Of a stretch of 64,000 nucleotides of DNA, positions 577 to 15,446 are shown piece by piece; the first letter of the stretch is position 1; the number at the start of each line of letters is the position of its first letter. The notes under the pieces were generated by a model that saw nothing but the letters and a program-made list of their open reading frames with translations, ran no database searches and had not been told where the DNA came from. This stretch comes from Bacillota bacterium (GTDB lineage Bacteria > Bacillota > Clostridia > Acetivibrionales > DTU013). A program made the position numbers and the translations under genes. The DNA is taken from assembly GCA_050261495.1 (NCBI GenBank), contig JBLNDI010000146.1:1357-65356 (forward strand), given 5' to 3'.

Positions 577-629
577 TGTTTTGCATGTTTTCGTTTGATG
601 GCAAGCAACGCAGCAGGGCGGCGAACAGT

Positions 630-648
630 TAAAAACCGGTAAACCGGT
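630..648 (-). terminator. Possible weak terminator for the minus-strand cupin gene
   Basis: ACCGGT-aa-ACCGGT forms a short hairpin followed on the minus strand by a T5 run (plus-strand A-run 631-635). The stem is short. Confidence 0.3.
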
Positions 649-665
649 GATAAAATCAAGTATTG

Positions 666-1013
666 CTAAAACAGCAGTATAACAGCAATGAGCACCAATT
701 GCTCATCACCGTTATTCTCTATGGAATGAGAACCTCCGTTTCCTGTGATGGAGGCATCTCCCGGTGATAATTCCGTTATATTTCCGTTATCGTTAATGAT
801 GCCTTTTCCGCTTATTACATAGTAGATTTCCTCTTCCTTGTCATGCTGATGCATCCCTATCGAGCATCCGGGATTCAGCGTGATCTTGGCAAACAGCCTT
901 GCTTTCCCGGTCATTTCATCCTGTCCGAAAATATGCATCAATTCCACGCTGCCCTTGCCGCCGCGCATCTCATGCCTTAAATCCCTGATCATCTCATTAG
1001 CTCTTTTTATCAT
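666..1013 (-). CDS. Small cupin-domain protein (metal-binding HxH...E...H motif)
   Basis: GMHQHDKEEEIYYVISG and GGSHSIEN match the cupin motifs. I prefer the ATG at 1013, which has GGTGAT upstream. The ORF track extends to a TTG at 1028. Confidence 0.75.
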   Translation of the reverse strand: MIKRANEMIRDLRHEMRGGKGSVELMHIFGQDEMTGKARLFAKITLNPGCSIGMHQHDKEEEIYYVISGKGIINDNGNITELSPGDASITGNGGSHSIENNGDEQLVLIAVILLF

Positions 1014-1102
1014 GCAAACATCACCCAATGGATATTATAACTAATATGCCATATTCATACAAGACAAGAAAAGCTTTTAAAAATTCTCGAAAAGAGAAGT
1101 GC

Positions 1103-1131
1103 TTGTCATGAATTTAGTACTATGCTATAAT
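1103..1131 (+). promoter_or_regulatory. Sigma-A promoter of the LacI-family regulator gene
   Basis: TTGTCA (1103-1108), a 17-nt spacer, then TGcTATAAT (extended -10; TATAAT at 1126-1131). Confidence 0.6.
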
Positions 1132-1145
1132 TAATTCAAAAGTAA

Positions 1146-1159
1146 TGAATACGTATTCA
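1146..1159. promoter_or_regulatory. Perfect 14-bp palindromic operator TGAATACGTATTCA (candidate LacI-family site, copy 1)
   Basis: The sequence is self-complementary. It lies 14 nt downstream of the -10 element, and the same core GAATACGTATTC recurs at 2863 and 2997. Confidence 0.65.
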
Positions 1160-1187
1160 TTAATCGTGATTAGGATGGTAAGTTAAA

Positions 1188-2207
1188 GTGAGCAAAAACA
1201 ATAATTTTAACAACAAGGTTACTTCAAAAGATGTGGCATTGTTGGCCGGAGTATCGCAATCGACAGTGTCGAAGGTCTTTTCGAAGAATGCAAAACTTTC
1301 CAAGGAGACAAAAAGAAAAGTTTTAGAAGCGGCAAAAGTGCTCAACTATCTTCCGAATGCGTTTGCCCGGAATCTAGTATTATCAAAGAGCAATATTATA
1401 GGAATTGTAAAAGGATATACCAAAAATATTGCGTTTACGGAAATGCTATCCGAACTTGTCTATTTAATACAGAAATCTAATAAGCATATCATCTATTTTG
1501 AAACGGAAAAAGGCCAGTCTATTGACGATATGATGCCGCTTATTCTGCAATACCAGATTGAAGGCCTAATACTTTTGTATGCAAACCTATCTTCAGAGTT
1601 GACATCGGCCTGCCAGCGAAAAGGTATTCCTGTAATGCAGGTGCTCAGGTATTCAACTTCAGCAAAAACAAACGTGGTTTTACCCGACAACTACAAAGCC
1701 GCTGAGGATGCAGCGACATTGTTTGTACAAAAAGGATTTCGAAATTTTATATACCTGGCGGGTGAAGTGAATTCTTCATCTAATATGGAGCGGCAATTAG
1801 GTTTTATAAAGAAATTACACGAGTATGGTTTTTCAAATCCTATTATATGCCAAGGGGATTATACATATGAGTCCGGCGTGAAGGCTATTCGTTCCGTGGC
1901 GAAAGGAATACCATTGCCATGTGCCATCCTGTCAGGAAATGATTTAATGGCTTTTGGCGCCATTGATACATTGAAATATGAATTCGGATTAACTATCGGT
2001 AAAGATGTTGCACTGATTGGGTTTGATAATTTATTTATGGGGGAATGGCCGTCTTATTCTTTGTCAAGCTATTGCCAACCTATTTCCCAAATGGCAAAAG
2101 ACGCGGTTGAATTGTTATTCAAAAATATCCAGGATAAAGACATGGTACCGGTTGAGAAACGGTATCCGCTGCAACTTATTGAAAGAAACTCAACAAAAAC
2201 GGACTAA
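1188..2207 (+). CDS. LacI/PurR-family transcriptional regulator
   Basis: N-terminal HTH VTSKDVALLAGVSQSTVSKVFS followed by a periplasmic-binding-protein-like sugar-binding core. GTG start. Confidence 0.9.
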   Translation: MSKNNNFNNKVTSKDVALLAGVSQSTVSKVFSKNAKLSKETKRKVLEAAKVLNYLPNAFARNLVLSKSNIIGIVKGYTKNIAFTEMLSELVYLIQKSNKHIIYFETEKGQSIDDMMPLILQYQIEGLILLYANLSSELTSACQRKGIPVMQVLRYSTSAKTNVVLPDNYKAAEDAATLFVQKGFRNFIYLAGEVNSSSNMERQLGFIKKLHEYGFSNPIICQGDYTYESGVKAIRSVAKGIPLPCAILSGNDLMAFGAIDTLKYEFGLTIGKDVALIGFDNLFMGEWPSYSLSSYCQPISQMAKDAVELLFKNIQDKDMVPVEKRYPLQLIERNSTKTD

Positions 2208-2221
2208 GGAGGTTAATCGCT

Positions 2222-2602
2222 ATGAAATTCATTCGGGAATCGGAAGCGCCCAAGGAACATTTTGAAGCACCTTATAAGCGTACAATTGCTCATATTGTAG
2301 CACCATGGACAGTGGGGTCCAGGCATGTATGGTTAGGTACGTGTACATATCCCCCGGGATTTACCAGCAATCCGCATTCACACGATGATATGGAAGAAAC
2401 TTTCTATTGTATTGGTGGAAAAGGCCAAATTAAGGTAAATGATACAGTTTTTAATGTAGAGATAGGCGATGCGGTTTATTGTGCTCCGGGCGAAGTCCAT
2501 CAGGTCATTAATCTGAACGGAACCGAAGATTTCAAGGTAGTGGCTGTCGTTACGCCGCCATTTACACCGGATTCATTTAAAAAAGATCACAGTGTTAAAT
2601 AA
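2222..2602 (+). CDS. Small cupin-domain protein (second copy in the island)
   Basis: NPHSHDDMEETFYCIGG and GEVHQVIN match the cupin motifs. AAGGAGG RBS 8 nt upstream. Confidence 0.75.
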   Translation: MKFIRESEAPKEHFEAPYKRTIAHIVAPWTVGSRHVWLGTCTYPPGFTSNPHSHDDMEETFYCIGGKGQIKVNDTVFNVEIGDAVYCAPGEVHQVINLNGTEDFKVVAVVTPPFTPDSFKKDHSVK

Positions 2603-2819
2603 GCATAAAAAGGTAAAGTTTAATTGAAACCGCCTGTCTTGCGGGCAGTATAAAAGCTGTGTTAAGATGAGGACTTCTGGTTCGGCTCACCATGGAATAC
2701 GAAATAATGTGCAAAAATATAAAAGAGATATTTCCCTGAGGGAGGAAATCGGAAGAACCCCCTTAGGCAGTATTCTTCAGCAGCAGTTGTTTACATGATA
2801 AAAAATCTTTCAGAAATAC

Positions 2820-2848
2820 TTGCTATTAATATAGCTCTGTGCTATAAT
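2820..2848 (+). promoter_or_regulatory. Sigma-A promoter of the ABC-transporter/catabolic operon
   Basis: TTGCTA (2820-2825), a 17-nt spacer, then TGcTATAAT (TATAAT at 2843-2848). The architecture matches the promoter at 1103. Confidence 0.6.
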
Positions 2849-2862
2849 AAAATCCATAGTAA

Positions 2863-2876
2863 GGAATACGTATTCC
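2863..2876. promoter_or_regulatory. Perfect 14-bp palindromic operator GGAATACGTATTCC (copy 2)
   Basis: Self-complementary and 14 nt downstream of the -10 element, the same spacing as copy 1. Confidence 0.65.
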
Positions 2877-2996
2877 ATACATGATTCTTGATAAAGCAAT
2901 ATTCCCGATGCGCCTTAATACAAACGTTAGCACTAAAGCAATATAAATACAGCATGAGGTTCTTATGGCTCTAAATTATAGAAATTTTTATAGCAA

Positions 2997-3010
2997 GGAA
3001 TACGTATTCT
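2997..3010. promoter_or_regulatory. Operator copy 3, GGAATACGTATTCT (12-bp perfect palindromic core at 2998-3009)
   Basis: It shares the GAATACGTATTC core and lies 134 bp centre-to-centre downstream of copy 2, inside the long leader. Confidence 0.55.
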
Positions 3011-3141
3011 TTAAATAATAATTAGACTATAAATAAAGATCGGATAAAAAAACAATTCTAATAGTAAGTTTACATCATAAGCCGTGGCTCTACTGGCCAT
3101 TGAGATATATATTGAAAGTATTCTATATTCCGGAGGTTCAT

Positions 3142-4116
3142 ATGATAGGGTCTGAAAAAGTATCTTCAACAAATTTCCTAAAAAATGTGCAGTTTAAGAA
3201 AATACTAACTAAGTCGGGCTTATGGATAATTTTTATTATACTAGTGATTATTGCTTCGATATTATCACCCAGGTTTTTAACTTATAATAATATATTTAAT
3301 GTGCTTCGTCAGATTTCCATACTTGGCATATTGGCTGTGGGAATGACATTTGTCATAATTTCCGGAGGAATTGATTTGTCTGTCGGTGGAGTCATGGCCT
3401 TCTCATGTGTTTTAGTTCCACTTGTATCGCCATATGTGGGAAATAACATAACGCTGATATGTTTGGTCAATATTTTCGTGGGAATGATACTTGGCATTGT
3501 TACGGGGTCGCTTGTTTCTTTTGGAAAGATGCAGCCTTTCATGGCAACGTTCGGTATGGCGACCATTGCTGAAGGATTGGGCTTTTTCTTCAGCGACGGA
3601 AGGCCTATCATTTTGGATGATAAGCGATGGACCGCCTTCGGCAGCGGTGCTACTCTCAGCATACCAAATATGGCCATAATTTTTATAATCGCAGTTATTA
3701 TTGGACAGTTTGTAATTTCAAAGACGTGTTATGGACTGAATACCTATGCAATTGGCAACAACGAGGTCGCGACTTCATTATGCGGCGTCAATACAAGAAT
3801 TACTAAAATGGTAGCCTATATTATCAGTGGTACATTGGCTGCAGTCGGCGGCCTGATGATGACTGCCCGAATAGGCGTCGGTGACCCTGGAGTGGGTGTT
3901 GGATATTCATTGGACACGATTGCCGCTGTCATTGTCGGTGGAACCAGGATGGGAGGAGGCTATGGAAGTATCCTTAATACGTTCCTGGGTACTTGTATTA
4001 TTGGACTATTAAACAATGTATTTAATTTGGCGGGAATTTCTCCGTATCCTCAAATGATATTCAAGGGCATGATTATTATATTTGCTGTTCTGATGGGACA
4101 GATTCGCAAGAAGTGA
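3142..4116 (+). CDS. Sugar ABC transporter permease (CUT2 / RbsC-like)
   Basis: Multi-TM protein with GGIDLSVGGVMAF and other motifs typical of the ribose/xylose-type permease family. ATG at 3142 is preceded by GGAGG. The ORF track starts at a TTG at 3100. Confidence 0.88.
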   Translation: MIGSEKVSSTNFLKNVQFKKILTKSGLWIIFIILVIIASILSPRFLTYNNIFNVLRQISILGILAVGMTFVIISGGIDLSVGGVMAFSCVLVPLVSPYVGNNITLICLVNIFVGMILGIVTGSLVSFGKMQPFMATFGMATIAEGLGFFFSDGRPIILDDKRWTAFGSGATLSIPNMAIIFIIAVIIGQFVISKTCYGLNTYAIGNNEVATSLCGVNTRITKMVAYIISGTLAAVGGLMMTARIGVGDPGVGVGYSLDTIAAVIVGGTRMGGGYGSILNTFLGTCIIGLLNNVFNLAGISPYPQMIFKGMIIIFAVLMGQIRKK

Positions 4117-4195
4117 TGAGCAAGTGTTGTACTTATTAGAACTGGTAAAAAATGCTGCTATAAAAAAACTAGTATAAATAAAGGAGGAGAAAATC

Positions 4196-5296
4196 ATGAA
4201 AAGGTCACAAATTATCTCAATTGCACTGGTCATAGTACTGATAGCATTTGCTATCGCCGGATGCGCCGCAAAAGAGCCAGCAGCGCCTGAGGCAACCAAT
4301 GAACCGGCGCAGGAAACGAAGACGCAGGAAGCTACGAATGAAAAACCGGCTCAGGAAGAGACAAAAGAAGTCGACTTGAGCAAATTCAAGGTCGGATTTG
4401 CCCAGGACACATTGAATCAGCCTTGGCGCAACTATCAAGCAGAATGTGTCAAGAAAGTTTTTGCGGAGTATGGGATTAACTGTGAAGTAACTGATGGCCA
4501 AGGGAAAGCCGAGAAGCAGATTTCCAACATTGAAGACATGGTTGCCAACGGATTGGATTTGCTAGTTGTCAGCCCGGCACAGGAAGCTGCTCTGACACCG
4601 GTTGTCGAGCAGGTATACCAAAAAGGAATTCCTGTCGTGTGCATAGACCGTGGTATTAAAAGTGATGCGTATACAACCTTTGTTCACGCTGACAATATTT
4701 TAATCGGCGCAATGGCCGCAGACTTTATCGCGGAGAAGATGACCGAGAAGTATGGCGAACCCAAGGGCAATGTAGTTGTTATCGAAGGCGTTCCGGGTTC
4801 AACGACAGCCGTACAACGTGACGAAGGATTCAGAAAGCGGATACAGGAAAAATATCCAAATCTTAAAATTTTAGCTAGCCAACCTGCAGACTATCGTCGT
4901 GATTTAGCTATGGCCGTAATGGAGGATTATCTGCAAGCCTACGACAACATAGATGCAGTTTTCACTCATGCCGATGAAATGACGATGGGAGCTATTGCAG
5001 CTATCGAGAATGCAGGACGGCGCAATGAAATGATAATTGCGAGCGTCAACGGCACCATGGAAGCTATTAAAGCAATCATGGACGGCCGTATGGACTGTTC
5101 GGTTCTGTATTCCAACTGCTCAGGTCCTGGCGTTGAATATGCCGTTAAGCTTCTTAAAGGCGAAGAAGTTCCTAAAAACGTTGTTATTGAAGCACTGGTA
5201 ATCGATACGGAAAATGCCGCGGAGTATTATAAAGAAGGCGCTTATTCTCCAGACCCGATGCCACTTGAGGAGGGCAAATATACGATCATCAAATAA
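4196..5296 (+). CDS. Sugar ABC transporter substrate-binding lipoprotein (periplasmic binding protein, ribose/galactose class)
   Basis: Signal peptide with lipobox IAGC, a Pro/Glu/Thr-rich linker, then a Peripla_BP-like core (VGFAQDTLNQPW, VVCIDRGI). AGGAGG RBS. Confidence 0.88.
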   Translation: MKRSQIISIALVIVLIAFAIAGCAAKEPAAPEATNEPAQETKTQEATNEKPAQEETKEVDLSKFKVGFAQDTLNQPWRNYQAECVKKVFAEYGINCEVTDGQGKAEKQISNIEDMVANGLDLLVVSPAQEAALTPVVEQVYQKGIPVVCIDRGIKSDAYTTFVHADNILIGAMAADFIAEKMTEKYGEPKGNVVVIEGVPGSTTAVQRDEGFRKRIQEKYPNLKILASQPADYRRDLAMAVMEDYLQAYDNIDAVFTHADEMTMGAIAAIENAGRRNEMIIASVNGTMEAIKAIMDGRMDCSVLYSNCSGPGVEYAVKLLKGEEVPKNVVIEALVIDTENAAEYYKEGAYSPDPMPLEEGKYTIIK

Positions 5297-5375
5297 ATTT
5301 CTGTGCGGTTAAAATGACGGTATCGCCGGCCGTTCCTGCTGGAATGGCCGGCAGATACAAAGGTTGGAGTGAATT

Positions 5376-6893
5376 ATGTCATTATTGTTAGAAACAAACA
5401 ATATTTGCAAATCGTTTCCGGGCGTGAAAGCTTTGAAGGATGTGAGCCTGGCTTTTAAAAAGGGAGAAGTTCACGCTTTGGTTGGTGAAAACGGCGCCGG
5501 AAAAACAACACTGATGCGGGTTATTTGCGGCATATACCAACCGGATAGCGGAGAGATTCTTCTTGAAGGCAAAAGGGTGAAATTCCAGAATCCACGCCAA
5601 TCACAGGAACAAGGTATAGCAATTATACACCAGGAATTGAACATGCCTGTCAATCTGACTATAGCCGAGTACATTTTTCTGGGACGCACTCCTAAAAATA
5701 AGCTTGGTATGGTCCGGAAGAAGGAAGCAATTTTGCAATCACAGAAATTGCTTGATTTGGTAGAGGTGAAACGGCACGCGTCCACCAAAATATACGAACT
5801 GAATGTAGCGGAACAGCAGTTGGTGGAGATTGCCAGAGCGCTTTCTCTAAACAGCAAGCTTTTAATTATGGATGAACCTACTTCTGCCCTGAACCAACAG
5901 GAAACGAATAATCTGTTTAGAATTATTCGGAGCCTCAAAAAGCAGGATGTAACGGTTATATATATTTCGCACAAGCTTAACGAGATATTTGAAATTGCTG
6001 ACGACATTACAGTGATGCGAGACGGATGTGTTATAGGAACCCACCCCGTTAAGGACTGCACGCATGAAATGATCGTAAAAATGATGACGGGTAAATCGTT
6101 TGAAGGCGACTACTATGCTAAAAACATAGAGAAGGAACAGAAGATCAACGAGAACAAGCCGGTCATGGTCGTCAAGAACTTGTCATCAAATTCGAAAAAG
6201 CTGAAAGTTGTCAGCTTTGAGGTTTATCAAGGCGAGGTTCTGGGTATCGCAGGCCTTTTGGGTTCAGGACGGACTGAGCTTTTCAGGGCTATTTTCGGTG
6301 CGGATCCAAAGACTCAGGGCGAGGTTATTATTAATGGGGAACCGGTTCGGATAAGTAGTACGACCGATGCGGTACGTGCTGGAGTAATGCTGTTACCTGA
6401 GGATCGAAAAGTAGAGGGCTTGGTTTTGCAGATGGACATTAAGAGCAATATTGCCTTACCGTCTTTGCGGTTCCTGTCATCCTGGGGTGTAATCAATAAA
6501 AGCAAAAGAAAACTCATGGCTTCACAATTTATAAAACAACTGCAGATCAAATGTACAGGAATGGACCAGGATGTAAACAATTTAAGCGGAGGAAACCAAC
6601 AAAAGGTTGTTTTTGCAAAGTGGCTTGCGGCAAGCCCAAAAGTGCTTCTGCTGGACGATCCTACCCGGGGCGTGGATGTTGGGGCAAAGCATGAGATATA
6701 TGGACTTATCCGCGAACTTGCCAGTAAGGGTATCGGCGTTGTGTTCGTATCTTCGGAGATGCCGGAACTTGTCGGTGTATGCGACAGGATTATTGTAATG
6801 CGTGATGGAGAAATTGTAGGTGAAGCAAAAGGTAATGCCATAAACGAAAATAATCTTATGATGATAGCGACAGGAGATAGTGCCAGTGTCTGA
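5376..6893 (+). CDS. Sugar ABC transporter ATP-binding protein with two fused nucleotide-binding domains (RbsA/MglA-like)
   Basis: Walker A GENGAGKTT, a signature/Walker B region (LIMDEPTSAL), and a second NBD with LSGGNQQKV and LLLDDPTRGVD. Confidence 0.92.
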   Translation: MSLLLETNNICKSFPGVKALKDVSLAFKKGEVHALVGENGAGKTTLMRVICGIYQPDSGEILLEGKRVKFQNPRQSQEQGIAIIHQELNMPVNLTIAEYIFLGRTPKNKLGMVRKKEAILQSQKLLDLVEVKRHASTKIYELNVAEQQLVEIARALSLNSKLLIMDEPTSALNQQETNNLFRIIRSLKKQDVTVIYISHKLNEIFEIADDITVMRDGCVIGTHPVKDCTHEMIVKMMTGKSFEGDYYAKNIEKEQKINENKPVMVVKNLSSNSKKLKVVSFEVYQGEVLGIAGLLGSGRTELFRAIFGADPKTQGEVIINGEPVRISSTTDAVRAGVMLLPEDRKVEGLVLQMDIKSNIALPSLRFLSSWGVINKSKRKLMASQFIKQLQIKCTGMDQDVNNLSGGNQQKVVFAKWLAASPKVLLLDDPTRGVDVGAKHEIYGLIRELASKGIGVVFVSSEMPELVGVCDRIIVMRDGEIVGEAKGNAINENNLMMIATGDSASV

Positions 6894-6984
6894 TCCAAAC
6901 AGCGTATAAATGCCATGCTCCGGACAAGGCCTGGCGTCATCTGTCGATGCTGCTGACAACATTTAGAAAAGGAGATGAATTATC

Positions 6985-7677: not shown

Positions 7678-7893
7678 TCTTACTTTTCGCCTGAAAAGAG
7701 GAGAGACATATTTACGCATGTGGTATTAAGCAGCCTAAGCGTTGTGTTTTCGGCATGGCAGGTGTTAGCACATGGATGCCTTGCCATGCCGAAAAACGAA
7801 AAAATTTTACTTTTTAATTGAGTACCAAAAAAGCAAATGAAATACCAGATATTTAACATCACTAAAAATAAAAATCAATCTAGGAGAATAAAG

Positions 7894-8730
7894 ATGAGAA
7901 GCAAAGAACTAGGCATTGGAAAATGGAAAGCAACAGCATTATATTGTGGCTATCATATTGCTCCCAAATCATTTCACACAGTCGGTTATGACGCGGATTT
8001 GGTTTTAAAGATGCCGTATTTGGCTTTTTTGCTGCAGGATGGCGAGCAGAACATATTGATCGATAACGGCATCAATGCCAGCTTCATAATCGATGGGAAA
8101 GCTTGGGCCGGATGCCCGGCAGATGCAGGCGAGAAAGATTTGATTGGATCTTTGGCAAAGGTTGGCCTCAAGCCGGAGGATATAGATCTTGTACTCTATA
8201 CCCACCTGCATAATGACCATGCGGGTAACGCACATCTGTTCCCGAATACAAAGTCCATTGCCCAAAAGGACGAATGGTACAACCTCAACCACCAGGTATT
8301 TGCCGAAAAACTAAGACGCGACTATGACTCGTCGGTTATACCTGTTTTGGCTGCGAATAAAAATTTCTTTACCGTTGAAGGCGATATACAGCTTATGGAA
8401 GGTATAAAGCTGATCAAGACCCCCGGGCATACCAGGGGAAGCCAATCCATAGTAGCTAATACGGTTAATGGCATAAGGGTATTTGTCGGCGATCAGTTCC
8501 ATCAGCTTTGCAGTTGCTTCCCGTGGATGGAGGAAATTATGGATTGCGACGGCAAAAAGTTTAAAATCACACCTGCGCCGGCGGACTGGCCTACAATACC
8601 TTCCAGCCTGGTTTACAACTATTATGCCTATTATGACAGTGCGGAAAAGATAAAGGTGCATGTTCCTGAACTGAAGCCCGAATGCATCATTTGCGGACAT
8701 GATGCTTCGCTTCTTTTCAGAGAAATATAA
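7894..8730 (+). CDS. MBL-fold metallo-hydrolase, lactonase-like
   Basis: YTHLHNDHAGN (HxHxDH) plus a downstream TPGHTRGS. ATG at 7894 is preceded by AGGAG. The ORF track starts at 7837. Confidence 0.8.
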   Translation: MRSKELGIGKWKATALYCGYHIAPKSFHTVGYDADLVLKMPYLAFLLQDGEQNILIDNGINASFIIDGKAWAGCPADAGEKDLIGSLAKVGLKPEDIDLVLYTHLHNDHAGNAHLFPNTKSIAQKDEWYNLNHQVFAEKLRRDYDSSVIPVLAANKNFFTVEGDIQLMEGIKLIKTPGHTRGSQSIVANTVNGIRVFVGDQFHQLCSCFPWMEEIMDCDGKKFKITPAPADWPTIPSSLVYNYYAYYDSAEKIKVHVPELKPECIICGHDASLLFREI

Positions 8731-8757
8731 ATCTCAAAATAAATGGGGTATGTAAAG

Positions 8758-9543
8758 ATGAGTAACTATCATTGCAGCACTCTGTTTGATATTAGAGGGA
8801 AAAAAGCGGTAGTCACCGGAGGCACAAAGGGTCTCGGACGTGAAATGGCCATATGTCTTCTTCAAAACGGATGCGATGTACTTGCCGTAAGCAGGAATAT
8901 AAGCGGGAATGAAGACATGCTTGATATTGCGGAAAAGAGTGGGACAAAGCTTTACTTTTATTCATGCGATGTGTGCGATACGGAAGCCGTTAAACAAATG
9001 GTCAAATATGCCGAGGAGACCCTGGGACGCATTGATATATTGATAAATTCCGCCGGAAAAAACATTACCAAAATGGTCGAGGAGATGGACGACGAATCGT
9101 GGGATTCCGTACTTGATTTGAACCTCAAGGCAACCTTTGTTGTAATGCGTGAAGTGATAAAAGTGATGAGAAAGCAGAAGTATGGCAAGATAATCAACAT
9201 GTCGTCCATGAAAAGCGTATTTGGCGTTTCAGACGCCGGTTATACAGCCTACTGCGCTTCCAAAGGCGCAGTTAACATGCTTTCCAAGCAAGTTGCATGT
9301 GAAGTGGCAAAAGACAATATTACCGTAAATGTACTGGCGCCGACATTTATCGAAACCGCAATCAATCGGCATCAATTGGCGGACCCGGTGTTCAAAAGCG
9401 CGTTGGAGGCGAGGATACCTATCGGACGCATAGGCCAGTTCAGTGATCTTATGGGTCCCTTGCTGCTTTTCGCATCCGATGCCTCACAGTTCCTGACCGG
9501 GCAGGTAATGTTGATCGACGGCGGCATAGCAGCGCGTCAATGA
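8758..9543 (+). CDS. SDR-family oxidoreductase (FabG / gluconate-5-dehydrogenase-like)
   Basis: TGGTKGLG cofactor motif, NSAG, and a YxxxK catalytic pair (YCASKGAV). The start is uncertain between 8743 and 8758. Confidence 0.85.
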   Translation: MSNYHCSTLFDIRGKKAVVTGGTKGLGREMAICLLQNGCDVLAVSRNISGNEDMLDIAEKSGTKLYFYSCDVCDTEAVKQMVKYAEETLGRIDILINSAGKNITKMVEEMDDESWDSVLDLNLKATFVVMREVIKVMRKQKYGKIINMSSMKSVFGVSDAGYTAYCASKGAVNMLSKQVACEVAKDNITVNVLAPTFIETAINRHQLADPVFKSALEARIPIGRIGQFSDLMGPLLLFASDASQFLTGQVMLIDGGIAARQ

Positions 9544-9593
9544 CAAACATTACGTGATATCCACGCGTTGGTGTGAAAGGAGTGAATATAAAA

Positions 9594-10370
9594 ATGGAAA
9601 AAAAGGGTTTGCAGTTATTCGACCTGACGGGTAAAAATGCTATTGTGACCGGAGCATCGAAAACAACCGGTTTGTGCTATGGTATGGCAAAGGCGCTTAA
9701 TGATGCCGGTGCTACAGTAGTACTGATGGATGTTTCGGAAGAGGTATTTAATCTCGCGAAGAACCTGGGCGGCGAAGAAATGGGGTTTTATGCCGTGCAG
9801 GCCGATTTGACCGACGAAGCGACAATAGAGGCTAAATTCAACGAAGCTGTTGGGTTATTAGGCGGCAGGCTTGACATACTTGTCAACGGCGCCGGTATTC
9901 AGTACCGTTGCGATGCCATAGACTTTCCCTTCGATAAATGGATGAAAGTTATTGACATAAACCTAAATTCCGTGTTCAGGGTGAGCCAGTTGGCTGGCAA
10001 GATAATGCTGGCCCAAGGGTATGGAAGGATTATCAATATCGCATCCATGACTTCCTTTTTCGGCAGCAAGCGAATTCCGGCATATGCAGCCAGCAAGGGC
10101 GGAATTATGCAGCTTACAAAAGCGCTTTCCAACGAATGGTGCGGGAAAGGCGTGAATGTCAATGCTATTGCACCCGGCTACATGCTTACCGAATTCTGGA
10201 TAGGAAAAACGGATACTGAGCAGGGAAGGGCAAATTCAGCGAGAATACCTGCCGGAAGGTGGGGCGTTGCGGAGGATCTTGCAGGTGTAACGATTTTCTT
10301 GGCGTCCGATGCGTCCAGCTATGTCAGCGGCGCAATTATACCCGTTGACGGCGGATATTTAGGTGCATAA
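9594..10370 (+). CDS. SDR-family oxidoreductase (KduD-like)
   Basis: TGASKTTG motif, NGAG, YAASKGG. ATG at 9594 is preceded by AAAGGAG. The ORF track starts at a GTG at 9573. Confidence 0.85.
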   Translation: MEKKGLQLFDLTGKNAIVTGASKTTGLCYGMAKALNDAGATVVLMDVSEEVFNLAKNLGGEEMGFYAVQADLTDEATIEAKFNEAVGLLGGRLDILVNGAGIQYRCDAIDFPFDKWMKVIDINLNSVFRVSQLAGKIMLAQGYGRIINIASMTSFFGSKRIPAYAASKGGIMQLTKALSNEWCGKGVNVNAIAPGYMLTEFWIGKTDTEQGRANSARIPAGRWGVAEDLAGVTIFLASDASSYVSGAIIPVDGGYLGA

Positions 10371-10397
10371 CAAAATGTTGCGTTTGGTGGTGATTAA

Positions 10398-11264
10398 ATG
10401 AATAAACAGGAACTAATAAAAAAAATGAGACGTTTTAGTGCCGATATCCGTATAGAAACTGTCAAGGAAATCGGTGAGGCCGGGTTTGGCCATATCGGCG
10501 GTTCGGCTTCAATTGCCGACGTGTTGGCTGTATTGTACGGAGGAGTTATGCGGATTGATCCGAGCAACCCGAACTGGGAAGACCGGGACTGGTTTGTGCT
10601 TTCAAAGGGTCACAGCGCGCCGGCGCTCTATGCTGCTCTGGCTCTTAAGGGGTATTTTCCCATTGAAGAGCTTAAGACCCTTAATAAGAACGGTACAAAT
10701 CTTCCCAGCCATGCTGATCGCTTAAAGGTGAGGGGAGTAGATATGTCTACCGGTTCTTTGGGTCAGGGTATATCGGCAGCAGTAGGCATAGCGCTTGCCA
10801 ATCGCATGCAAGGCAGGGACAGCTACACTTACTGTATCGTAGGTGATGGAGAACTCAACGAGGGTCAGGTATGGGAAGCCTGTTCACTAGCCAGTCATCA
10901 AAAACTGGACCATTTCTTCTGTTTTGTGGACTGGAATAAAAAGCAGATTGACGGCAGAGTGGAACAGGTAAATGATCCTATTGACATAGAATCCAAGTTC
11001 CATGCCTTTGGATTTGATGCGGTCACCGTGAAGGGCTATGACGTCGAAGAGATTTATGACGCAATTCAAAGGGGAAAGACTGTAAAAGGAAAGCCGCACT
11101 GTATTGTACTGGATACTATTAAAGGACTGGGAATATTCTTTGCCGAAGAGCAGGAATTCAACCATTACTTAAACTACGGTCCCGAGCAGGCGCAAAAGGC
11201 AGTGGAGGAGATTGAAAGGCGCTATTCGGCAGGGACGTATCCTGGAGGTGATTTTAAGTGGTAA
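10398..11264 (+). CDS. Transketolase, N-terminal (TPP-binding) subunit of a split enzyme
   Basis: GHIGGSASIADVL, SKGHSAPALYA and GDGELNEGQVWEA are the TPP-binding motifs of split transketolases. Confidence 0.9.
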   Translation: MNKQELIKKMRRFSADIRIETVKEIGEAGFGHIGGSASIADVLAVLYGGVMRIDPSNPNWEDRDWFVLSKGHSAPALYAALALKGYFPIEELKTLNKNGTNLPSHADRLKVRGVDMSTGSLGQGISAAVGIALANRMQGRDSYTYCIVGDGELNEGQVWEACSLASHQKLDHFFCFVDWNKKQIDGRVEQVNDPIDIESKFHAFGFDAVTVKGYDVEEIYDAIQRGKTVKGKPHCIVLDTIKGLGIFFAEEQEFNHYLNYGPEQAQKAVEEIERRYSAGTYPGGDFKW

Positions 11265-12220
11265 AACTGGCAGAAAAGAACGACATGGACACCAAAGAAA
11301 TGAGGCAGGCATATTGTGAGGAACTAATCGAGTTGGCCAAGACGAACGACAAGGTCGTGGTCATCAATTGCGATCTTTGCAGTTCCATGGGGCTGAAACC
11401 GTTTGAAAAGCAGTTTCCTCACCGGGCGATTAACGTTGGAGTCCAGGAAGCGAACGGCTGCAGTGTTGCAGGCGGCATGTCCGTAGCCGGGATGATACCG
11501 TTTTTTAATACGTTTGCAATATTCGCCACCCGCAGGGTTTATGACCAAATTTTTATGTGTTGTGCTTATCCGGACCTTAACGTCAAGATTGTAGGGGGAG
11601 ACGCGGGTGTAAGCGCTACTTATAATGGCGGAACTCATATGGCTTTTGAGGATGTCGGAATCATGCGCGTTATGCCCAACGTAACAATCATGGAGCCTTC
11701 CGACGCCGTAATGCTGAGAAGCTTGGTGTGGAAAATGGCAGATACTTATGGTGTGCAGTATATGCGTACACCGCGCAAGAATATGCCAAGAATATACGAA
11801 CCGGGTTCTGAATTTGAAATCGGCAAGGCAGTTGTTCTGCGGGAGGGTACTGACGTAACTCTTATTGCCTACGGAATGACAGTCATTGAATCTCTTAAAG
11901 CCGCCGATATACTGGCTGCGGAGGGTATAAGCGCTCGCGTGGTGGATATGTTCACAATAAAACCTATCGATAAGGAATGCGTGATTGAAAGCGCCCGTAA
12001 AACGGGCTGTATCGTTACCGCTGAAAATCACCAAATCATAGGCGGATTGGGGAGCGCCGTAGCCGAAACGCTGGCGGAGAATTACCCGGTTCCCATGGAA
12101 CGCGTGGGAGTGCAAGGCATCTTTGGCGAAGTGGGCACGCAAGACTATTTAATGGAACGGTTTGAATTGACTGCACCCCATATAGTGAAAAAAGCAAAAA
12201 TAGCAATTGCAAGAAAATAA
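11258..12220 (+). CDS. Transketolase, C-terminal (pyrimidine-binding) subunit
   Basis: INVGVQEANGCSVAGGMS, FATFAIFATRR and GGTHMAFEDV. The GTG start overlaps the upstream stop, indicating translational coupling. Confidence 0.9.
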   Translation: MVKLAEKNDMDTKEMRQAYCEELIELAKTNDKVVVINCDLCSSMGLKPFEKQFPHRAINVGVQEANGCSVAGGMSVAGMIPFFNTFAIFATRRVYDQIFMCCAYPDLNVKIVGGDAGVSATYNGGTHMAFEDVGIMRVMPNVTIMEPSDAVMLRSLVWKMADTYGVQYMRTPRKNMPRIYEPGSEFEIGKAVVLREGTDVTLIAYGMTVIESLKAADILAAEGISARVVDMFTIKPIDKECVIESARKTGCIVTAENHQIIGGLGSAVAETLAENYPVPMERVGVQGIFGEVGTQDYLMERFELTAPHIVKKAKIAIARK

Positions 12221-12263
12221 AATGCCATATTTTGGTGACAGGAAAAAATAAGGAGATGAGAGT

Positions 12264-13778
12264 ATGGTAGAACGTAAAAAGTATTGCGCAAACGGAATAT
12301 GGAAGGAATCAAAGACAGATAAATGGATGCCTGTGACAGATTCCAGCACGGGAGAAGTTATTGCGGAAGTACCCTGCTGCACCGCCGACGAGGTGGAGGA
12401 AGCCATAGCGGCTGCTGATGCGGCGTTCCCGGAATGGAGTCAGACGTCTCTCAGCAAGCGTACGCAAATGATGTTCCATTGGCGTAATGTATTGGTTAAG
12501 CATCTTGATGAATTGACACTGCTTTGCTCCAAAGAGCTGGGCAAAACCTTGGATGAAGCCAGGGGTGATGTCATCAAGGCTATAGAACCTACGGAATTAG
12601 CGTGCAGCCTGCCTTATATCATACAGGGCAGCGCTTCCTTGCAGGTAACGACCGGATACGACACGGCATCGTACCGGGTACCGCTTGGTGTTGTGGCAGG
12701 TATCGCGCCTTTCAACTTCCCGGCTATGATTCCATGGGGGTGGATGGTACCGCTGGCAATAGCAACTGGCAACACAGTAGTTCTAAAGGCTTCAAGCTTT
12801 ACACCGCTGACATCGATGAGAATCATGGAATTGTTCTATACCGAAGGCGGTTTTCCCGCGGGAATCGTGAATCTTGTGACCTGCTCCAGGAAGGAGTCCG
12901 AAATGTTTCTCACGGATCCCCGCATCAAGGCAGTCACATTTGTAGGCTCCACCGATGTGGGCAAGCATATTTACTCGATAGCTGCGGCGCATGGTAAGAG
13001 GGTACAGGCACAGTGCGAGGCTAAAAACCATGCGTTGGTACTCGAGGACTGCGACCTTGAAAGTACGGTGAACGCAGTAATCAACTCAACTTATGGCTGC
13101 GCCGGCATGCGCTGCATGGCTTTGCCTGTTATTGTCGTTCAGGAAAGCATCGCGGATAAATTTGTGTATCTTTTGAAAGAAAAGGCCATGCAAATAAAGA
13201 TAGGTTGTGCTTATGACCCCGAAACCAAGCTTGGGCCCGTAGTTAACGAAGGCCATAAGAAATTTGTTTGCGATTGGATACAAAAGGGCGTCGAAGAGGG
13301 CGCGGAATTGATACTGGATGGACGCAACTGCGTCGTACCGGGGTTTGAGAAAGGTTACTTTATAGGCCCAACAATTTTCGATCATGTCAAGCCGGGTATG
13401 TCCATAGGCGATAAGGAAATCTTCGGCCCTGTAACTGTTATAAAACGTGTAAAGGATTTTGATGAAGGCATAAAAATTATGAATGCCAACCAATTCGCCA
13501 ACGGTTCGGTAATATTCACACAGAATGGCTATTATGCCAGGCAGTTTGAATTGCTTACCGACGGCGGCATGGTCGGCATCAACGTCGGCATTCCCGTTCC
13601 AACGGCTTACTTCCCGTTCTCGGGCAACAAGGACAGCTTCTTTGGCGACCAGCATGTTTTAGGGTTGGACGGTGTTCGCTTCTATACACGGGCAAAGACT
13701 GTTACCAAGCACTGGTTTGATGAACACTCCAGGAAGCGTGCCGTAGATACCTGGGAAGGTACGGTAGAACGCATCTGA
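12264..13778 (+). CDS. CoA-acylating methylmalonate/malonate-semialdehyde dehydrogenase-type aldehyde dehydrogenase (MmsA/IolA family)
   Basis: ALDH fold with catalytic Cys in GCAGMRCMA. The family-specific C-terminus FPFSGNKDSFFGD...GVRFYT is typical of MMSDH. AAGGAG RBS. Confidence 0.85.
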   Translation: MVERKKYCANGIWKESKTDKWMPVTDSSTGEVIAEVPCCTADEVEEAIAAADAAFPEWSQTSLSKRTQMMFHWRNVLVKHLDELTLLCSKELGKTLDEARGDVIKAIEPTELACSLPYIIQGSASLQVTTGYDTASYRVPLGVVAGIAPFNFPAMIPWGWMVPLAIATGNTVVLKASSFTPLTSMRIMELFYTEGGFPAGIVNLVTCSRKESEMFLTDPRIKAVTFVGSTDVGKHIYSIAAAHGKRVQAQCEAKNHALVLEDCDLESTVNAVINSTYGCAGMRCMALPVIVVQESIADKFVYLLKEKAMQIKIGCAYDPETKLGPVVNEGHKKFVCDWIQKGVEEGAELILDGRNCVVPGFEKGYFIGPTIFDHVKPGMSIGDKEIFGPVTVIKRVKDFDEGIKIMNANQFANGSVIFTQNGYYARQFELLTDGGMVGINVGIPVPTAYFPFSGNKDSFFGDQHVLGLDGVRFYTRAKTVTKHWFDEHSRKRAVDTWEGTVERI

Positions 13779-14023
13779 TTACAGAAGAACATTGTTAATT
13801 TGCTGAATTTGGAGGGTATCCTCCGGACTGTGTAAAAGGTGCAATGCAGCAATAATATATGTTGAACAATAATGCTTTTATACAGTCGGACATACCGTTT
13901 TAATCTTGTTGAACTTGCACAGCATCCGATGGAAACCCTCCATTTTAATTTTAATGTTTATTATTGCTTGCACCTCTCTTGGGATATTAATGCAAGGCAA
14001 TCTAAAAGTTAAAAAGATGGGCG

Positions 14024-14506: not shown

Positions 14507-14507
14507 A

Positions 14508-15438: not shown

Positions 15439-15446
15439 GGGACATT

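Follow-up and report, generated by a model that had tools for sequence, protein, structure and literature searches.

The window analysed here, a 64-kb stretch of DNA from a Clostridia genome of gut type, contains a putatively LacI-controlled island of 13 genes at positions 666-13778, and the remainder of the window is occupied by housekeeping genes. The gene content that the original prediction had attributed to this interval was borne out by profile searches, which placed every gene at or near its predicted position; the predicted lack of kinase, aldolase, dehydratase and glycosidase also held, as the domain search found none of these domains in 577-14062. The genes of the island are the following.

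666-1028, minus strand: cupinA, Cupin_2 (56.6 bits), HxH...E...H motif in the translation, divergent from the LacI gene
1188-2207, plus strand: LacI-family repressor, LacI HTH plus Peripla_BP_3/1
2222-2602, plus strand: cupinB, Cupin_2, conserved small metal cupin always following LacI
3142-4116, plus strand: CUT2 ABC permease, BPD_transp_2 (142 bits), ORF opening at 3100
4196-5296, plus strand: lipoprotein solute-binding protein, Peripla_BP_4 (196 bits), lipobox IAGC
5376-6893, plus strand: fused double ABC ATPase, two ABC_tran domains
6985-7677, plus strand: cyclase-family metal hydrolase, PF04199 (112.6 bits), HxxxHxDxxxH intact
7894-8730, plus strand: MBL-fold lactonase-like hydrolase, Lactamase_B, HLHNDH motif, ORF opening at 7837
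8743-9543, plus strand: SDR1, adh_short, in the conserved upper module
9573-10370, plus strand: SDR2, KduD-like, TIGR01832 (252 bits against a cut-off of 339)
10398-11264, plus strand: transketolase N-terminal (TPP-binding) subunit, NF004559 (250 bits)
11258-12220, plus strand: transketolase C-terminal subunit, NF004559 (270 bits), non-canonical subfamily
12264-13778, plus strand: CoA-acylating MSDH (MmsA/IolA type), TIGR01722 (552 bits against a cut-off of 448)

Conservation and regulation of the cluster

A neighbourhood comparison had been suggested as a check on the original prediction, and it showed that a string of 12 genes, running from LacI to MSDH and excluding cupinA (LacI, cupin, CUT2 importer, cyclase-family hydrolase, MBL hydrolase, two SDRs, split transketolase and MmsA-type dehydrogenase), occurs in the same order in L092, L177 and L178 with 61-88% protein identity. 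These loci represent two further versions of the cluster, one of them present in two assemblies, and the genes flanking the string differ among the window, L092 and L177/L178. The LacI repressor is 66-80% identical to its orthologues in L001, L092 and L177, and 49% identical to that of L089. Predicted regulatory sites are found in two regions of the cluster.

1103-1131, plus strand: promoter-like site before LacI-cupinB, TTGTCA-17-TATAAT, 11/12 matches, extended TG, identified by consensus match only
1144-1161, no strand assigned: operator candidate O1, perfect 18-bp palindrome AATGAATACGTATTCATT, after the promoter and ahead of the LacI start
2820-2848, plus strand: predicted promoter-like site of the transport/catabolic operon, TTGCTA-17-TATAAT, 10/12 matches, TG
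2861-2878, no strand assigned: operator candidate O2, AAGGAATACGTATTCCAT, directly 3' of the -10 element
2995-3012, no strand assigned: operator candidate O3, AAGGAATACGTATTCTTT

The GAATACGTATTC-core palindrome has three matches in the whole window (one perfect and two near copies, with 0.07 expected), all of them within the two promoter regions of the cluster, and the same operator core is also present upstream of LacI in L092, L177 and L089. Since the gene string recurs with differing flanks and the operator copies are confined to the cluster promoter regions, the arrangement exceeds a chance neighbourhood. These candidate operators suggest that the cluster forms one regulon, repressed by LacI.

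Importer and upper module

The permease is likely to start at the ATG at 3142, which is preceded by GGAGG 5 nt upstream. The binding protein matches the RbsB (164 bits) and YtfQ (159 bits) models, both far under their cut-offs, and its best PDB matches are the ribose-binding protein 2ioy, 2x7x (labelled just "SENSOR PROTEIN") and YtfQ. Compared with the pocket of E. coli RbsB, residues D89, R90 and R141 are kept and F15W, F16R and N190A are changed, and the protein carries a Trp-Arg pair like that of YtfQ; it is of the furanose type (ribose / galactofuranose). Two cupins had been predicted in the set and both belong to Cupin_2, but cupinA, a small metal cupin whose role is probably accessory, is missing from the other cluster copies (L092, L177 and L001). 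CupinB represents a tiny family (28 clusters in 5.8 billion proteins), and the closest folds to its predicted model (pLDDT 93.5) are TM1287, archaeal mini-PMI cupins and KdgF; it is proposed to act as a helper in sugar ring-opening or as an isomerase helper.

The nearest structures to the cyclase-family hydrolase, which is 83-86% identical in L001, L092 and L177, are isatin hydrolases and kynurenine formamidases, and a function as second lactonase is proposed. For the MBL hydrolase the start was set at 7894, as its homologues have 278 aa, and its matches to the AiiA and 4-pyridoxolactonase models are far under the cut-offs; that both metal hydrolases are lactonases is an assumption. SDR1 matches the gluconate 5-dehydrogenase and FabG-like models under their cut-offs, and its orthologues (57-79% identity) adjoin MBL orthologues or share a cluster with them, the two being paired in L001, L004, L085, L089, L092 and L177. 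A role as sugar 1-dehydrogenase is proposed for SDR1. Alternatively, it may be an aldonate 3-dehydrogenase, or the upper-module enzymes may be generalists, as in L085/L086 the orthologues of MBL (71%) and SDR1 (~59%) are accompanied by an FGGY kinase, an OMPdecase-family decarboxylase and an AP_endonuc_2 protein, a Ula/Yia-like set whose route requires a 3-keto-hexonate with a 2-OH.

The sister clusters L001-L003 keep the genes from LacI through SDR1 at 66-88% identity and are devoid of SDR2, transketolase and MSDH, in place of which they carry a CoA-transferase, a thiolase and a 3-hydroxyacyl-CoA dehydrogenase. In Anaerotruncus (L004), MBL and SDR1 orthologues are interleaved with a CoA ligase, a CoA-transferase, a thiolase and a 3HCDH, the CoA-transferase and thiolase being 61% identical to their L001 counterparts. 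In Klebsiella michiganensis, the CoA-transferase/thiolase enzyme set shared by L001-L004 is the one proposed to act on deoxyribonate (PMC6365646). The cluster is thus modular, with a common upper module and an exchangeable lower module (transketolase/MSDH versus thiolase). For both thiolysis to acetyl-CoA and the release of malonate semialdehyde, C2 of the acid must be a CH2.

Lower module: SDR2, transketolase and MSDH

SDR2 is confined to those clusters that encode the transketolase: L092 and L177 have it at 80-81% identity, and L001 lacks it. Its best PDB matches are KduD ("2-deoxy-D-gluconate 3-dehydrogenase"), a hexonate dehydrogenase and gluconate 5-dehydrogenases. In the reactions of KduD and gluconate 5-dehydrogenase it is the carbon adjoining the terminal CH2OH that is oxidised, which yields the transketolase donor motif; SDR2 is proposed to be a hydroxy-acid omega-1 dehydrogenase that makes the donor.

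Both subunits of the predicted split transketolase are present, but the enzyme is not of the standard type. H26, H66, H100, D155, N185 and H261 are conserved in the N-terminal subunit, and all catalytic and TPP residues as well as Arg358, Ser385 and Arg520 are kept, whereas His461 is replaced by Gly and Asp469 by Asn. His461 to Gly/Cys/Ala together with Asp469 to Asn was found in the window and in 120/120 closest homologues, and the same substitutions occur in all 13 transketolases that adjoin this MSDH type among the aligned related loci. Carboxydothermus has a characterised split transketolase (6yaj), which served as control; its sequence is ATHAGLTVGEDGASHQ at the site where the window reads GGDAGVSATYNGGTHM, and His461 and Asp469 are kept in that enzyme, in E. 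coli TktA and in human transketolase; the 150 nearest 50%-identity representatives include 66 canonical and 53 window-type sequences. In transketolases, Asp469 of E. coli (Asp477 in yeast) binds the 2-OH of the acceptor and His461 binds the phosphate. With both lost, the expected product aldehyde lacks an alpha-OH and the anion is one other than phosphate, and malonate semialdehyde is such an aldehyde; the substitutions fit the predicted C2 transfer from a non-phosphorylated donor. Asp469Asn is suggestive rather than decisive for a lost reading of the 2-OH, since Asn is still able to hydrogen-bond a hydroxyl. A window-type transketolase at 51% identity adjoins a PFK-family kinase and a TRAP transporter, so kinase-independence is not subfamily-wide, and a kinase or aldolase encoded elsewhere in the genome, of which these 64 kb were seen, may take part.

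In agreement with the predicted CoA-acylating semialdehyde dehydrogenase, MSDH exceeds its TIGR01722 cut-off and aligns with B. subtilis MSDH 1T90 (444 bits), SYRVP, GMRCMA and AKNH corresponding to NYRYP, GERCMA and AKNH. In this enzyme type the stretches contain the Arg residues that bind the carboxylate, the catalytic Cys and an Asn in place of the general-base Glu. Score and alignment mark the protein as a bona fide CoA-acylating malonate/methylmalonate-semialdehyde dehydrogenase. An MSDH-type gene lies directly downstream of this transketolase type in all five contexts examined (67-81% identity), each with different genes upstream of the pair; the pair is a widespread module. In L091 it is accompanied by an aminotransferase and SDR2 is missing, a context that the proposed pathway leaves unexplained. 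The same MSDH type, at 80-85% identity, is also found in dozens of unrelated neighbourhoods and is thus, taken by itself, a poor guide to the chemistry that precedes it.

Proposed pathway

The locus may be a LacI-repressed, kinase-free island for the catabolism of a furanose-type sugar or of the corresponding gamma-lactone, a reading to which we give a probability of about 0.42; we infer all the chemical steps, the regiochemistry of the SDRs, the donor and acceptor of the transketolase and the identity of the substrate. The substrate would be brought in by the CUT2 importer, with cupinB aiding ring opening or anomer handling, and SDR1, acting as sugar 1-dehydrogenase, would oxidise C1 to give a lactone, which the MBL and cyclase-family hydrolases would convert to the hydroxy-acid. 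The KduD-like SDR2 would then oxidise the penultimate carbon to a keto-acid of the HOCH2-CO-CHOH-CH2-COO(-) type, from which the split transketolase would move the C2 ketol unit to an acceptor, a phosphorylated aldose such as glyceraldehyde-3-P (giving xylulose-5-P), with release of malonate semialdehyde for conversion to acetyl-CoA and CO2 by the MmsA-type dehydrogenase. The substrate would in this way be activated without ATP, the carboxylate standing in for phosphate.

The leading candidate substrate is 2-deoxy-D-ribose, at best guess derived from DNA, which would proceed through 2-deoxyribonolactone and 2-deoxyribonate to 3,5-dihydroxy-4-oxopentanoate; it is favoured because, among common sugars, it alone gives an acid that could feed both the transketolase and the thiolase lower modules. 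An aldose rather than an acid is the probable starting compound, since such a start matches the number of oxidising enzymes, three in this cluster and two in the clusters with a thiolase. Why two hydrolases and a cupin would be needed is not explained by the deoxyribose route.

The defining genes of the sulfo-transketolase, Iol and published deoxyribose routes were absent from the cluster in profile searches, as the claimed mismatch with canonical routes had implied, and no characterised pathway fits the cluster. The overall interpretation of the original prediction is partly supported, the points open to computational testing having turned out in its favour, and the modularity of the cluster, the thiolase route of the sister clusters and the widespread transketolase/MSDH module go beyond it. 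A transketolase that cuts a sugar acid and passes malonate semialdehyde to the next enzyme would constitute a route so far undescribed. The proposed scheme combines the known logic of the oxidative deoxyribose routes with that of the sulfo-transketolase pathway, in which a sulfonate takes the role of the phosphate much as the carboxylate would here.

Gene content and candidate operators of the cluster

The cluster occupies positions 577-14062 of the window, and its genes, taken from an ORF listing and profile scans of the block between trmD and rplS, are the following.

Genes of the cluster and its flanks (coordinates, strand where given, description)
34-576: trmD, left flank of the cluster
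666-1028, minus strand: cupinA, small metal cupin, divergent
1188-2207, plus strand: LacI-family regulator
2222-2602, plus strand: cupinB, second small cupin, 14 nt 3' of LacI
about 3142-4116, plus strand: CUT2 ABC permease, preceded by a 540-nt gap
4196-5296, plus strand: lipoprotein binding protein
5376-6893, plus strand: fused double ATPase
6985-7677, plus strand: PF04199 'cyclase'-family metal hydrolase
7894-8730, plus strand: MBL-fold hydrolase (MBL)
8743-9543, plus strand: SDR dehydrogenase 1 (SDR1)
9573-10370, plus strand: SDR dehydrogenase 2 (SDR2)
10398-11264 and 11258-12220, plus strand: split transketolase, two subunits
12264-13778, plus strand: MmsA/IolA-type CoA-acylating semialdehyde dehydrogenase (MSDH), 552 bits against a curated cut-off of 448
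about 14063-14506: rplS, right flank of the cluster

The start of the MBL gene was placed 57 nt downstream of the long-ORF start after comparison with homologues. The gene content named in the original prediction was borne out by the ORF listing and the profile scans, as was the absence, within the cluster block, of kinase, aldolase, dehydratase and glycosidase domains; the other 50 kb of the window are made up of housekeeping genes. That the gene set co-occurs elsewhere, a point which the original prediction had raised, is seen in two related loci with other flanks, L092 (73-85% identity per protein) and L177/L178 (61-88%), where the complete 12-gene order from LacI to the aldehyde dehydrogenase recurs. 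The trmD-rplS pair, inside which the ~13 kb cluster sits, is usually contiguous, and rplS has a strong promoter-like site of its own at 14024-14053. No direct repeats longer than 9 nt were found flanking the cluster, which behaves like an island because its neighbours differ in L092 and L177.

Past a strong promoter-like site (1103-1131) and ahead of the LacI start stands a candidate operator, the perfect 18-bp palindrome AATGAATACGTATTCATT; two near copies were found, one directly past the -10 of a further promoter-like site (2820-2848) and the other 130 nt further on, 5' of the permease gene. These three matches, all at the cluster, are the only ones in the 64 kb (0.07 expected), and the candidate operators share the motif GAATACGTATTC; the operator core also stands 5' of LacI in L092, in L177/L178 and in L089, a locus with MBL and SDR1 orthologues. 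The operator-bearing divergent promoter region is shared by LacI and cupinA, the latter having no counterpart in the other cluster copies and being ~32-34% identical, over some 60 residues, to cupins of clusters that combine a transaldolase with an MSDH. Elsewhere in the window, a 154-aa ORF (21292-21756) has an N-terminus that by eye resembles an IS200/IS605-type transposase, and a 626-aa ORF 3' of rnhB (16135-18015) has a long central stretch of low complexity in which Gly, Ala, Thr and Glu abound.

The transketolase subfamily and its dehydrogenase partner

In an alignment with E. coli TktA, whose numbering is used here, the TPP/metal and catalytic residues H26, H66, H100, D155, N185, H261, E411 and H473 are all kept in the window transketolase. 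The phosphate-binding set is incomplete, Arg358, Ser385 and Arg520 being kept and His461, one of the phosphate ligands of transketolases, being replaced by Gly; in addition, Asp469 is replaced by Asn. Asp469 (Asp477 in yeast) hydrogen-bonds the 2-OH of the acceptor aldose, which corresponds to the C4-OH of the donor, and its mutation is the classical means of making the E. coli enzyme take non-hydroxylated aldehydes; the argument is weakened by the fact that Asn can still bind a hydroxyl. Asp469 is kept in E. coli TktA, in the human enzyme, together with His461, and in the split transketolase of Carboxydothermus hydrogenoformans (PDB 6yaj/6yak), a biochemically characterised enzyme. The last resembles the window enzyme in having two subunits (304 bits to its C-terminal chain) and in keeping the TPP/catalytic His and Arg residues, but the window enzyme has other residues for the phosphate-binding His and for the stereo-reading Asp, the active-site loop being ATHAGLTVGEDGASHQ in 6yaj and GGDAGVSATYNGGTHM in the window. 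Of the two-subunit transketolase of the original prediction, what stands is a split TPP enzyme with its catalytic residues kept; it is not a canonical one, positions 461 and 469 being replaced.

All of the 120 closest homologues (62-100% identity) carry Asn469, and their position 461 is Gly or Cys, with one Met and one Ser besides. The 150 nearest clusters, found by searching 1.84 billion representatives exhaustively, comprised 66 canonical and 53 window-type ones (His461 lost, Asp469 replaced by Asn), the rest being other variants, and the nearest 11 were all window-type. A third kind of split transketolase, with Gly in place of Asp469, was noticed at L090 1793-6879 and L096 6224-7996 ('ATHSGTSSG-GGTTH' and 'GAYCGLPTGRGGATH'); in L090 it adjoins a KduI/IolB-family protein and a 791-aa glycyl-radical enzyme, and in L096 it accompanies a CUT2 importer, a CN-hydrolase and a dihydropyrimidinase-like amidohydrolase.

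Relatives of the window transketolase at 67-81% identity are directly followed by an MmsA-type aldehyde dehydrogenase (486-506 aa) in all five contexts looked up, and the genes upstream of the pair vary. The full sugar cluster precedes it in L092 and L177/L178; in L091 AraC stands before it, along with a class III aminotransferase, an Opp-type ABC system and a C45/AAT-family hydrolase. In L090 the genes upstream are those of a KduI/IolB-family protein, a glycyl-radical enzyme and a second transketolase, and in L175 the pair has GntR upstream and, downstream, a transaldolase as well as a three-subunit xanthine-dehydrogenase-family enzyme. Among the aligned loci, transketolases adjoining an MSDH-type dehydrogenase carry Asn469 without exception (13/13). 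In the cluster versions compared, SDR2 occurs only where transketolase and MSDH occur. A more distant relative (51% identity) lies in L180 between a PFK-family kinase and a TRAP transporter, with no aldehyde dehydrogenase visible near it up to the contig end.

These observations bear on whether the enzyme may simply be an ordinary pentose-phosphate transketolase, the sugar handled by the upper genes (importer, cupinB, hydrolases and SDR1) being phosphorylated by a kinase encoded elsewhere and the MSDH being an unrelated, frequent neighbour. Only 64 kb of the genome is visible, and the two halves, taken together, score at the level of the NCBIfam transketolase model; two substrate-reading residues, however, differ from every characterised transketolase checked. 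This type of MSDH is found in many contexts, yet the five pairs are preserved under differing upstream genes, and in L177 the transketolase (70% identity) and MSDH (61%) are more diverged from those of the window than the upper genes (78-88%) while both functions are kept. The restriction of SDR2 to clusters with both enzymes also speaks against an ordinary transketolase, and the adjacency of the window-type L180 enzyme to a PFK-family kinase speaks for it; on the whole, this explanation is regarded as decidedly unlikely.

The MSDH matches TIGR01722 over residues 9-484 (model positions 5-477 of 477), and can be aligned from end to end with B. subtilis MSDH (1T90, 444 bits), as well as with human ALDH6A1. 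Its GMRCMA, SYRVP and AKNH stretches align with GERCMA, NYRYP and AKNH of 1T90, and we take them to hold the catalytic Cys with its preceding Arg, the second of the two carboxylate-binding Arg, and the Asn replacing the general-base Glu. A metagenome scan seeded with the MSDH returned 434 relatives, of which 80 loci, 80-85% identical, were kept. Their neighbourhoods are very different, a variety which, at such identity, suggests that these bacteria conserve the MSDH as a 'terminal' enzyme acting on malonate semialdehyde. A transketolase lies upstream in about one fifth of the 80 loci and a transaldolase downstream in seven, and several of the transaldolase/MSDH loci also carry a Zn-ADH, an SMP30-type lactonase and a cupin that shares ~30% identity with cupinB; a theme of cupin, lactonase, dehydrogenase, transketolase or transaldolase, and MSDH thus recurs with non-orthologous parts.

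It is proposed, with a probability of about 0.4 for the reading as a whole, that the window transketolase belongs to a large unrecognised subfamily (at least 53 clusters at 50% identity) whose donors would be non-phosphorylated keto-acids. With its dedicated MSDH, and elsewhere also a transaldolase, it would make up a kinase-free 'carboxy-sugar' cleavage module widespread among anaerobic Bacillota, the carboxylate counterpart of sulfoglycolysis, here allowing an ATP-free conversion of 2-deoxyribose to xylulose-5-P and acetyl-CoA. For specialists, it is the transketolase subfamily, so tightly linked to MSDH, that is of interest. If true, the proposal would amount to a new type of transketolase reaction, with a carboxylate sugar acid as ketol donor, and to a new ATP-sparing use of deoxyribose or a related sugar by gut and digester Clostridia; it would also explain the highly conserved MmsA-type dehydrogenase scattered over many orphan catabolic islands of these bacteria, and provide a signature, GxDxGVxAxxNGGTHM, for re-annotating many genes labelled simply 'transketolase' in the searched sources.

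Proposed route and candidate substrates

In the proposed scheme, a furanose-type sugar would be imported and oxidised to a lactone by SDR1, the MBL and the cyclase-family hydrolase would open the lactone(s) to the acid, and SDR2 would oxidise the position next to the terminal CH2OH, giving HOCH2-CO-CHOH-CH2-COO(-). The transketolase would then pass the C2 ketol to a phosphorylated aldose and release OHC-CH2-COO(-), malonate semialdehyde, which the MSDH would convert to acetyl-CoA and CO2. The overall balance would be deoxyribose + glyceraldehyde-3-P + CoA + 3 NAD+ → xylulose-5-P + acetyl-CoA + CO2 + 3 NADH, with no ATP spent. The acid must be 2-deoxy in such a scheme because only then would the released aldehyde be malonate semialdehyde, which lacks an alpha-OH and fits the Asp469Asn replacement, and because only then could the thiolase of the sister clusters yield acetyl-CoA. 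We infer that 2-deoxy-D-ribose, as the sole abundant natural sugar fitting the route, is the leading candidate, and the C3 configuration of the 4-keto acid derived from it presumably matches the donor requirement of transketolase. The number of oxidising enzymes (three here, two in the thiolase version) fits an aldose start. Weak points are that two hydrolases and a cupin exceed the needs of a deoxyribose route, that the L180 transketolase stands beside a PFK-family kinase, and that in L091 (1050-12527) a window-type transketolase and MSDH (76-83% identity) are kept without SDR2.

SDR1 is nearest to FabG and gluconate 5-dehydrogenase, and SDR2 to KduD ('2-deoxy-D-gluconate 3-dehydrogenase'), a hexonate dehydrogenase and gluconate 5-dehydrogenases; at 252 bits against a cut-off of 339, SDR2 is related to KduD without being a member. 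The nearest matches of the binding protein are a ribose-binding protein, 2x7x (listed only as 'SENSOR PROTEIN') and the galactofuranose-binding YtfQ, with scores below the equivalog cut-offs of both RbsB (164 vs 337 bits) and YtfQ (159 vs 510 bits). It retains three of the ten RbsB contact positions, the diol-binding triad Asp89/Arg90/Arg141, and has Ala for Asn190 and Trp-Arg for Phe15-Phe16, a pair which we take to be as in YtfQ. For the cyclase-family protein the nearest matches are isatin hydrolases and kynurenine formamidases, and the MBL has an invariant HLHNDH (HxHxDH metal motif), all its scores against named lactonase models being far below the cut-offs (AiiA 93 vs 375). The cupinB family counts only 28 clusters; its sequence gives weak, generic cupin matches among solved structures, and the folds most like that of its confident model (pLDDT 93.5) are those of TM1287, of archaeal mini-phosphomannose isomerases and of KdgF, which narrows it just to the KdgF/mini-PMI class and points to sugar isomerisation or ring-opening rather than oxygenase chemistry. 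A relation to vitamin B6 degradation, by way of an SDR, an MBL-fold 4-pyridoxolactonase and a 3HCDH-family dehydrogenase, was considered and rejected, all similarities being far below the cut-offs; the known route needs oxygenases.

The upper genes also occur with another set of partners. The closest MBL homologues (88% identity) are those of L001-L003, where LacI, cupinB and the importer are retained along with the cyclase-family enzyme, MBL and SDR1, all at 66-88% identity. These loci are without SDR2, transketolase and aldehyde dehydrogenase; a thiolase and a 386-aa 3-hydroxyacyl-CoA dehydrogenase stand directly upstream, together with a fused CoA-transferase. Anaerotruncus rubiinfantis (L004) has its MBL (62%) and SDR1 (69%) orthologues interspersed with genes for a 3HCDH, a TRAP transporter, an AP_endonuc_2 protein and an AMP-forming ligase, and with those for a CoA-transferase and a thiolase that are each 61% identical to their L001 counterparts. 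In L089 the MBL and SDR1 orthologues are accompanied by no more than a TAXI-TRAP system plus an Asp-Al_Ex transporter; the locus shares the operator motif with the window and is a minimal version of the regulon, possibly serving substrate/product exchange; at 8510-9936, four copies of the operator core GAATACGTAT flank a LacI 49% identical to that of the window.

A different setting is found in L085/L086, where MBL (71%) and SDR1 (~59%) orthologues occur in a Ula/Yia-like set of DeoR, an OMPdecase-family protein (217 aa), PTE, an FGGY kinase (503 aa) and AP_endonuc_2 (285 aa), of which DeoR, OMPdecase, FGGY and AP_endonuc_2 presumably mirror UlaR, UlaD, LyxK and UlaE. This context argues that relatives of MBL and SDR1 handle 2-hydroxylated hexonolactones, and the window cluster might likewise serve a hexonolactone of the ascorbate family. 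The MBL would then open an L-gulono-, dehydroascorbate- or ascorbate-type gamma-lactone, SDR1 would make or use a 3-keto-hexonate, other enzymes would process the C6 (or decarboxylated C5) compound, and the transketolase would act on a different keto-acid or a free ketose. A gamma-lactone would suit a furanose-type binding protein, and the TRAP transporters of L004 and L089 may be likened to YiaMNO, the TRAP transporter for 2,3-diketogulonate; however, with the enzymes present no route could be drawn that would turn a 2-hydroxylated C6 acid into malonate semialdehyde or into a thiolase substrate, the Asp469Asn replacement speaks against a donor with a normal C4-OH, and no decarboxylase, kinase or epimerase was found in the window by profile scans. 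A hexonolactone substrate is considered unlikely. The ascorbate and 2,3-diketogulonate (Ula/Yia) systems use an MBL-fold lactonase on a sugar lactone, as the cluster would, and are linked to it through the close MBL/SDR1 relatives of L085, but PTS and TRAP transporters, the kinase, the decarboxylase and the epimerases are missing from the window, and no specific similarity of its MBL to UlaG was found. The L085/L086 cluster itself (946-11956) has an ABC importer in place of PTS or TRAP and two lactonase candidates, the PTE-family protein and the MBL, and may encode an ABC-dependent ascorbate or gulonolactone route.

The KduD-like SDR2 and the KdgF-like fold of cupinB would also be in keeping with a C6 deoxy-keto-acid donor, either 2-deoxy-5-keto-D-gluconate (the IolB product) or 2,5-diketo-3-deoxygluconate (a KduI/KduD intermediate), the released aldehyde then being malate semialdehyde or formylpyruvate. 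Both compounds have HOCH2-CO-CHOH followed by, or near, a CH2 and a carboxylate end. A KduI/IolB-family protein stands beside the variant transketolase of L090, and L104 joins to the transketolase/MSDH pair a GFO/IDH/MocA-family oxidoreductase (143 vs 355 bits for the IolG model) and a TPP enzyme (262 vs 715 for IolD). A transaldolase directly after the same type of MSDH, as found in seven metagenome loci and L175, would free malonate semialdehyde from a C6 compound; profile scans of the window, on the other hand, found no transaldolase, and no dehydratase, IolD, IolE, IolG or genes for lyase-derived uronates. The intermediates do not suit the thiolase module of the sister clusters, and the MSDH keeps the stretches common to the B. 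subtilis enzyme, which is specific for C3/C4 beta-carboxy aldehydes, so that such a donor is held to be very unlikely here. The loci with transaldolase directly 3' of MSDH (L103, L129, L140, L142, L150, L158, L162, and L175 at 9141-17576) may themselves release malonate semialdehyde from a C6 deoxy-keto-acid by a kinase-free transaldolase step; in L175 the transaldolase is accompanied by a window-type transketolase, a three-subunit molybdenum dehydrogenase and a PPDK_N/PEP-utilizer pair.

Relation to described pathways

Full-text literature searches found no published description of this gene set or of a transketolase yielding malonate semialdehyde, and the original view that no canonical route matches was upheld, membership of the sulfo-transketolase, inositol (Iol) and published oxidative deoxyribose routes failing in each case. 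By analogy, the cluster under the deoxyribose scheme would work like a hybrid of the oxidative deoxyribose/deoxyribonate routes of Proteobacteria and the kinase-free logic of the sulfo-transketolase pathway.

[quoted passage not shown] 2019, PMC6365646). Like these routes, the cluster has an SDR and a lactonase-like protein, and the conversion of sugar to lactone and 2-deoxy acid, the second oxidation, the C-C cleavage and the formation of acetyl-CoA would be common to both. The cluster differs from the P. simiae type in having no iorAB-like molybdenum dehydrogenase, DUF849 cleavage enzyme, glycerate kinase or MFS transporter. The K. michiganensis acyl-CoA set is absent from the window, and L001 and L004 have beside their MBL/SDR1 orthologues a Klebsiella-type CoA ligase or transferase, hydroxyacyl-CoA dehydrogenase and thiolase, matched by enzyme type. 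The published routes oxidise C3 and yield acetyl-CoA and glyceryl-CoA, whereas here C4 would be oxidised and the transketolase would cut at C3-C4, giving malonate semialdehyde and a C2 unit; the hosts, anaerobic Bacillota, also differ.

With the sulfo-transketolase pathway, whose gene definitions are available (PMC9594981), the scheme would share the absence of a kinase, a split transketolase acting on a non-phosphorylated sugar that bears another anion, and the transfer of the ketol to glyceraldehyde-3-P. The anion would be a carboxylate made by oxidation instead of a sulfonate, one transketolase round would be expected, and the product would be assimilated fully as acetyl-CoA and not excreted. 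The last aldehyde of the known pathway, sulfoacetaldehyde, also has no alpha-OH; it is handled by the SqwF reductase and an exporter, or by SqwD and the SqwKL ligase, usually with a sulfoquinovosidase in the set, and in one variant it is oxidised by a CoA-acylating dehydrogenase, as malonate semialdehyde would be here. That the cluster might itself be a sulfosugar route is suggested by sulfoacetaldehyde being the sulfonate isostere of malonate semialdehyde and by the pairing of SqwGH with a CoA-acylating aldehyde dehydrogenase in known variants (PMC11659671, PMC12890257), but SqvD (FucI family), SqvB (DUF4867), SqwI (RpiB family), SqwF, the SqwKL ligase, the sulfonate exporter and the sulfoquinovosidase are all absent. 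The ten cluster proteins scanned against Pfam gave no match to SqvD (PF02952), SqvB (PF16161) or SqwI (PF02502), the other three matching, from end to end, the NCBIfam models of transketolase and MSDH, and no Fe-ADH, succinyl-CoA-synthetase-like ligase, exporter or glycosidase was found in 577-14062. Oxidation at C1 to a lactone would, moreover, destroy the only end of sulfoquinovose able to become a ketol donor, and the same type of MSDH neighbours beta-alanine-forming enzymes. The binding protein is RbsB/YtfQ-like, a type to which SQ binding proteins are not known to belong. A sulfosugar route is therefore disfavoured, its probability being extremely small.

The lower myo-inositol route (IolB-IolC-IolJ-IolA) and the deoxyribose scheme would both pass through a deoxy-keto-acid, with a cupin isomerase, and end in malonate semialdehyde and an IolA/MmsA-type CoA-acylating dehydrogenase. 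Of the Iol set, however, only the IolA-type enzyme is in the cluster, IolG, IolE, IolD, IolB, the kinase IolC and the aldolase IolJ being absent, and C-C cleavage would occur by TPP-dependent ketol transfer instead of phosphorylation and aldol cleavage. Membership of the sulfoquinovose and inositol pathways was rejected on the absence of their defining genes from the cluster in profile scans; the apiose transketolase route, which needs a kinase, was rejected as none is present in the cluster. An origin of malonate semialdehyde from pyrimidines or beta-alanine was suggested by the aminotransferase, CN-hydrolase and dihydropyrimidinase-like gene of L091 and L096, and was rejected for the window because the latter is without aminotransferase and amidohydrolase. 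The commonest MSDH neighbourhood (L093-L172), found in 21 of the 80 kept loci, many from the human gut, has an IclR regulator, a xanthine-dehydrogenase-family molybdenum enzyme with its FAD subunit and a 426-aa membrane protein.
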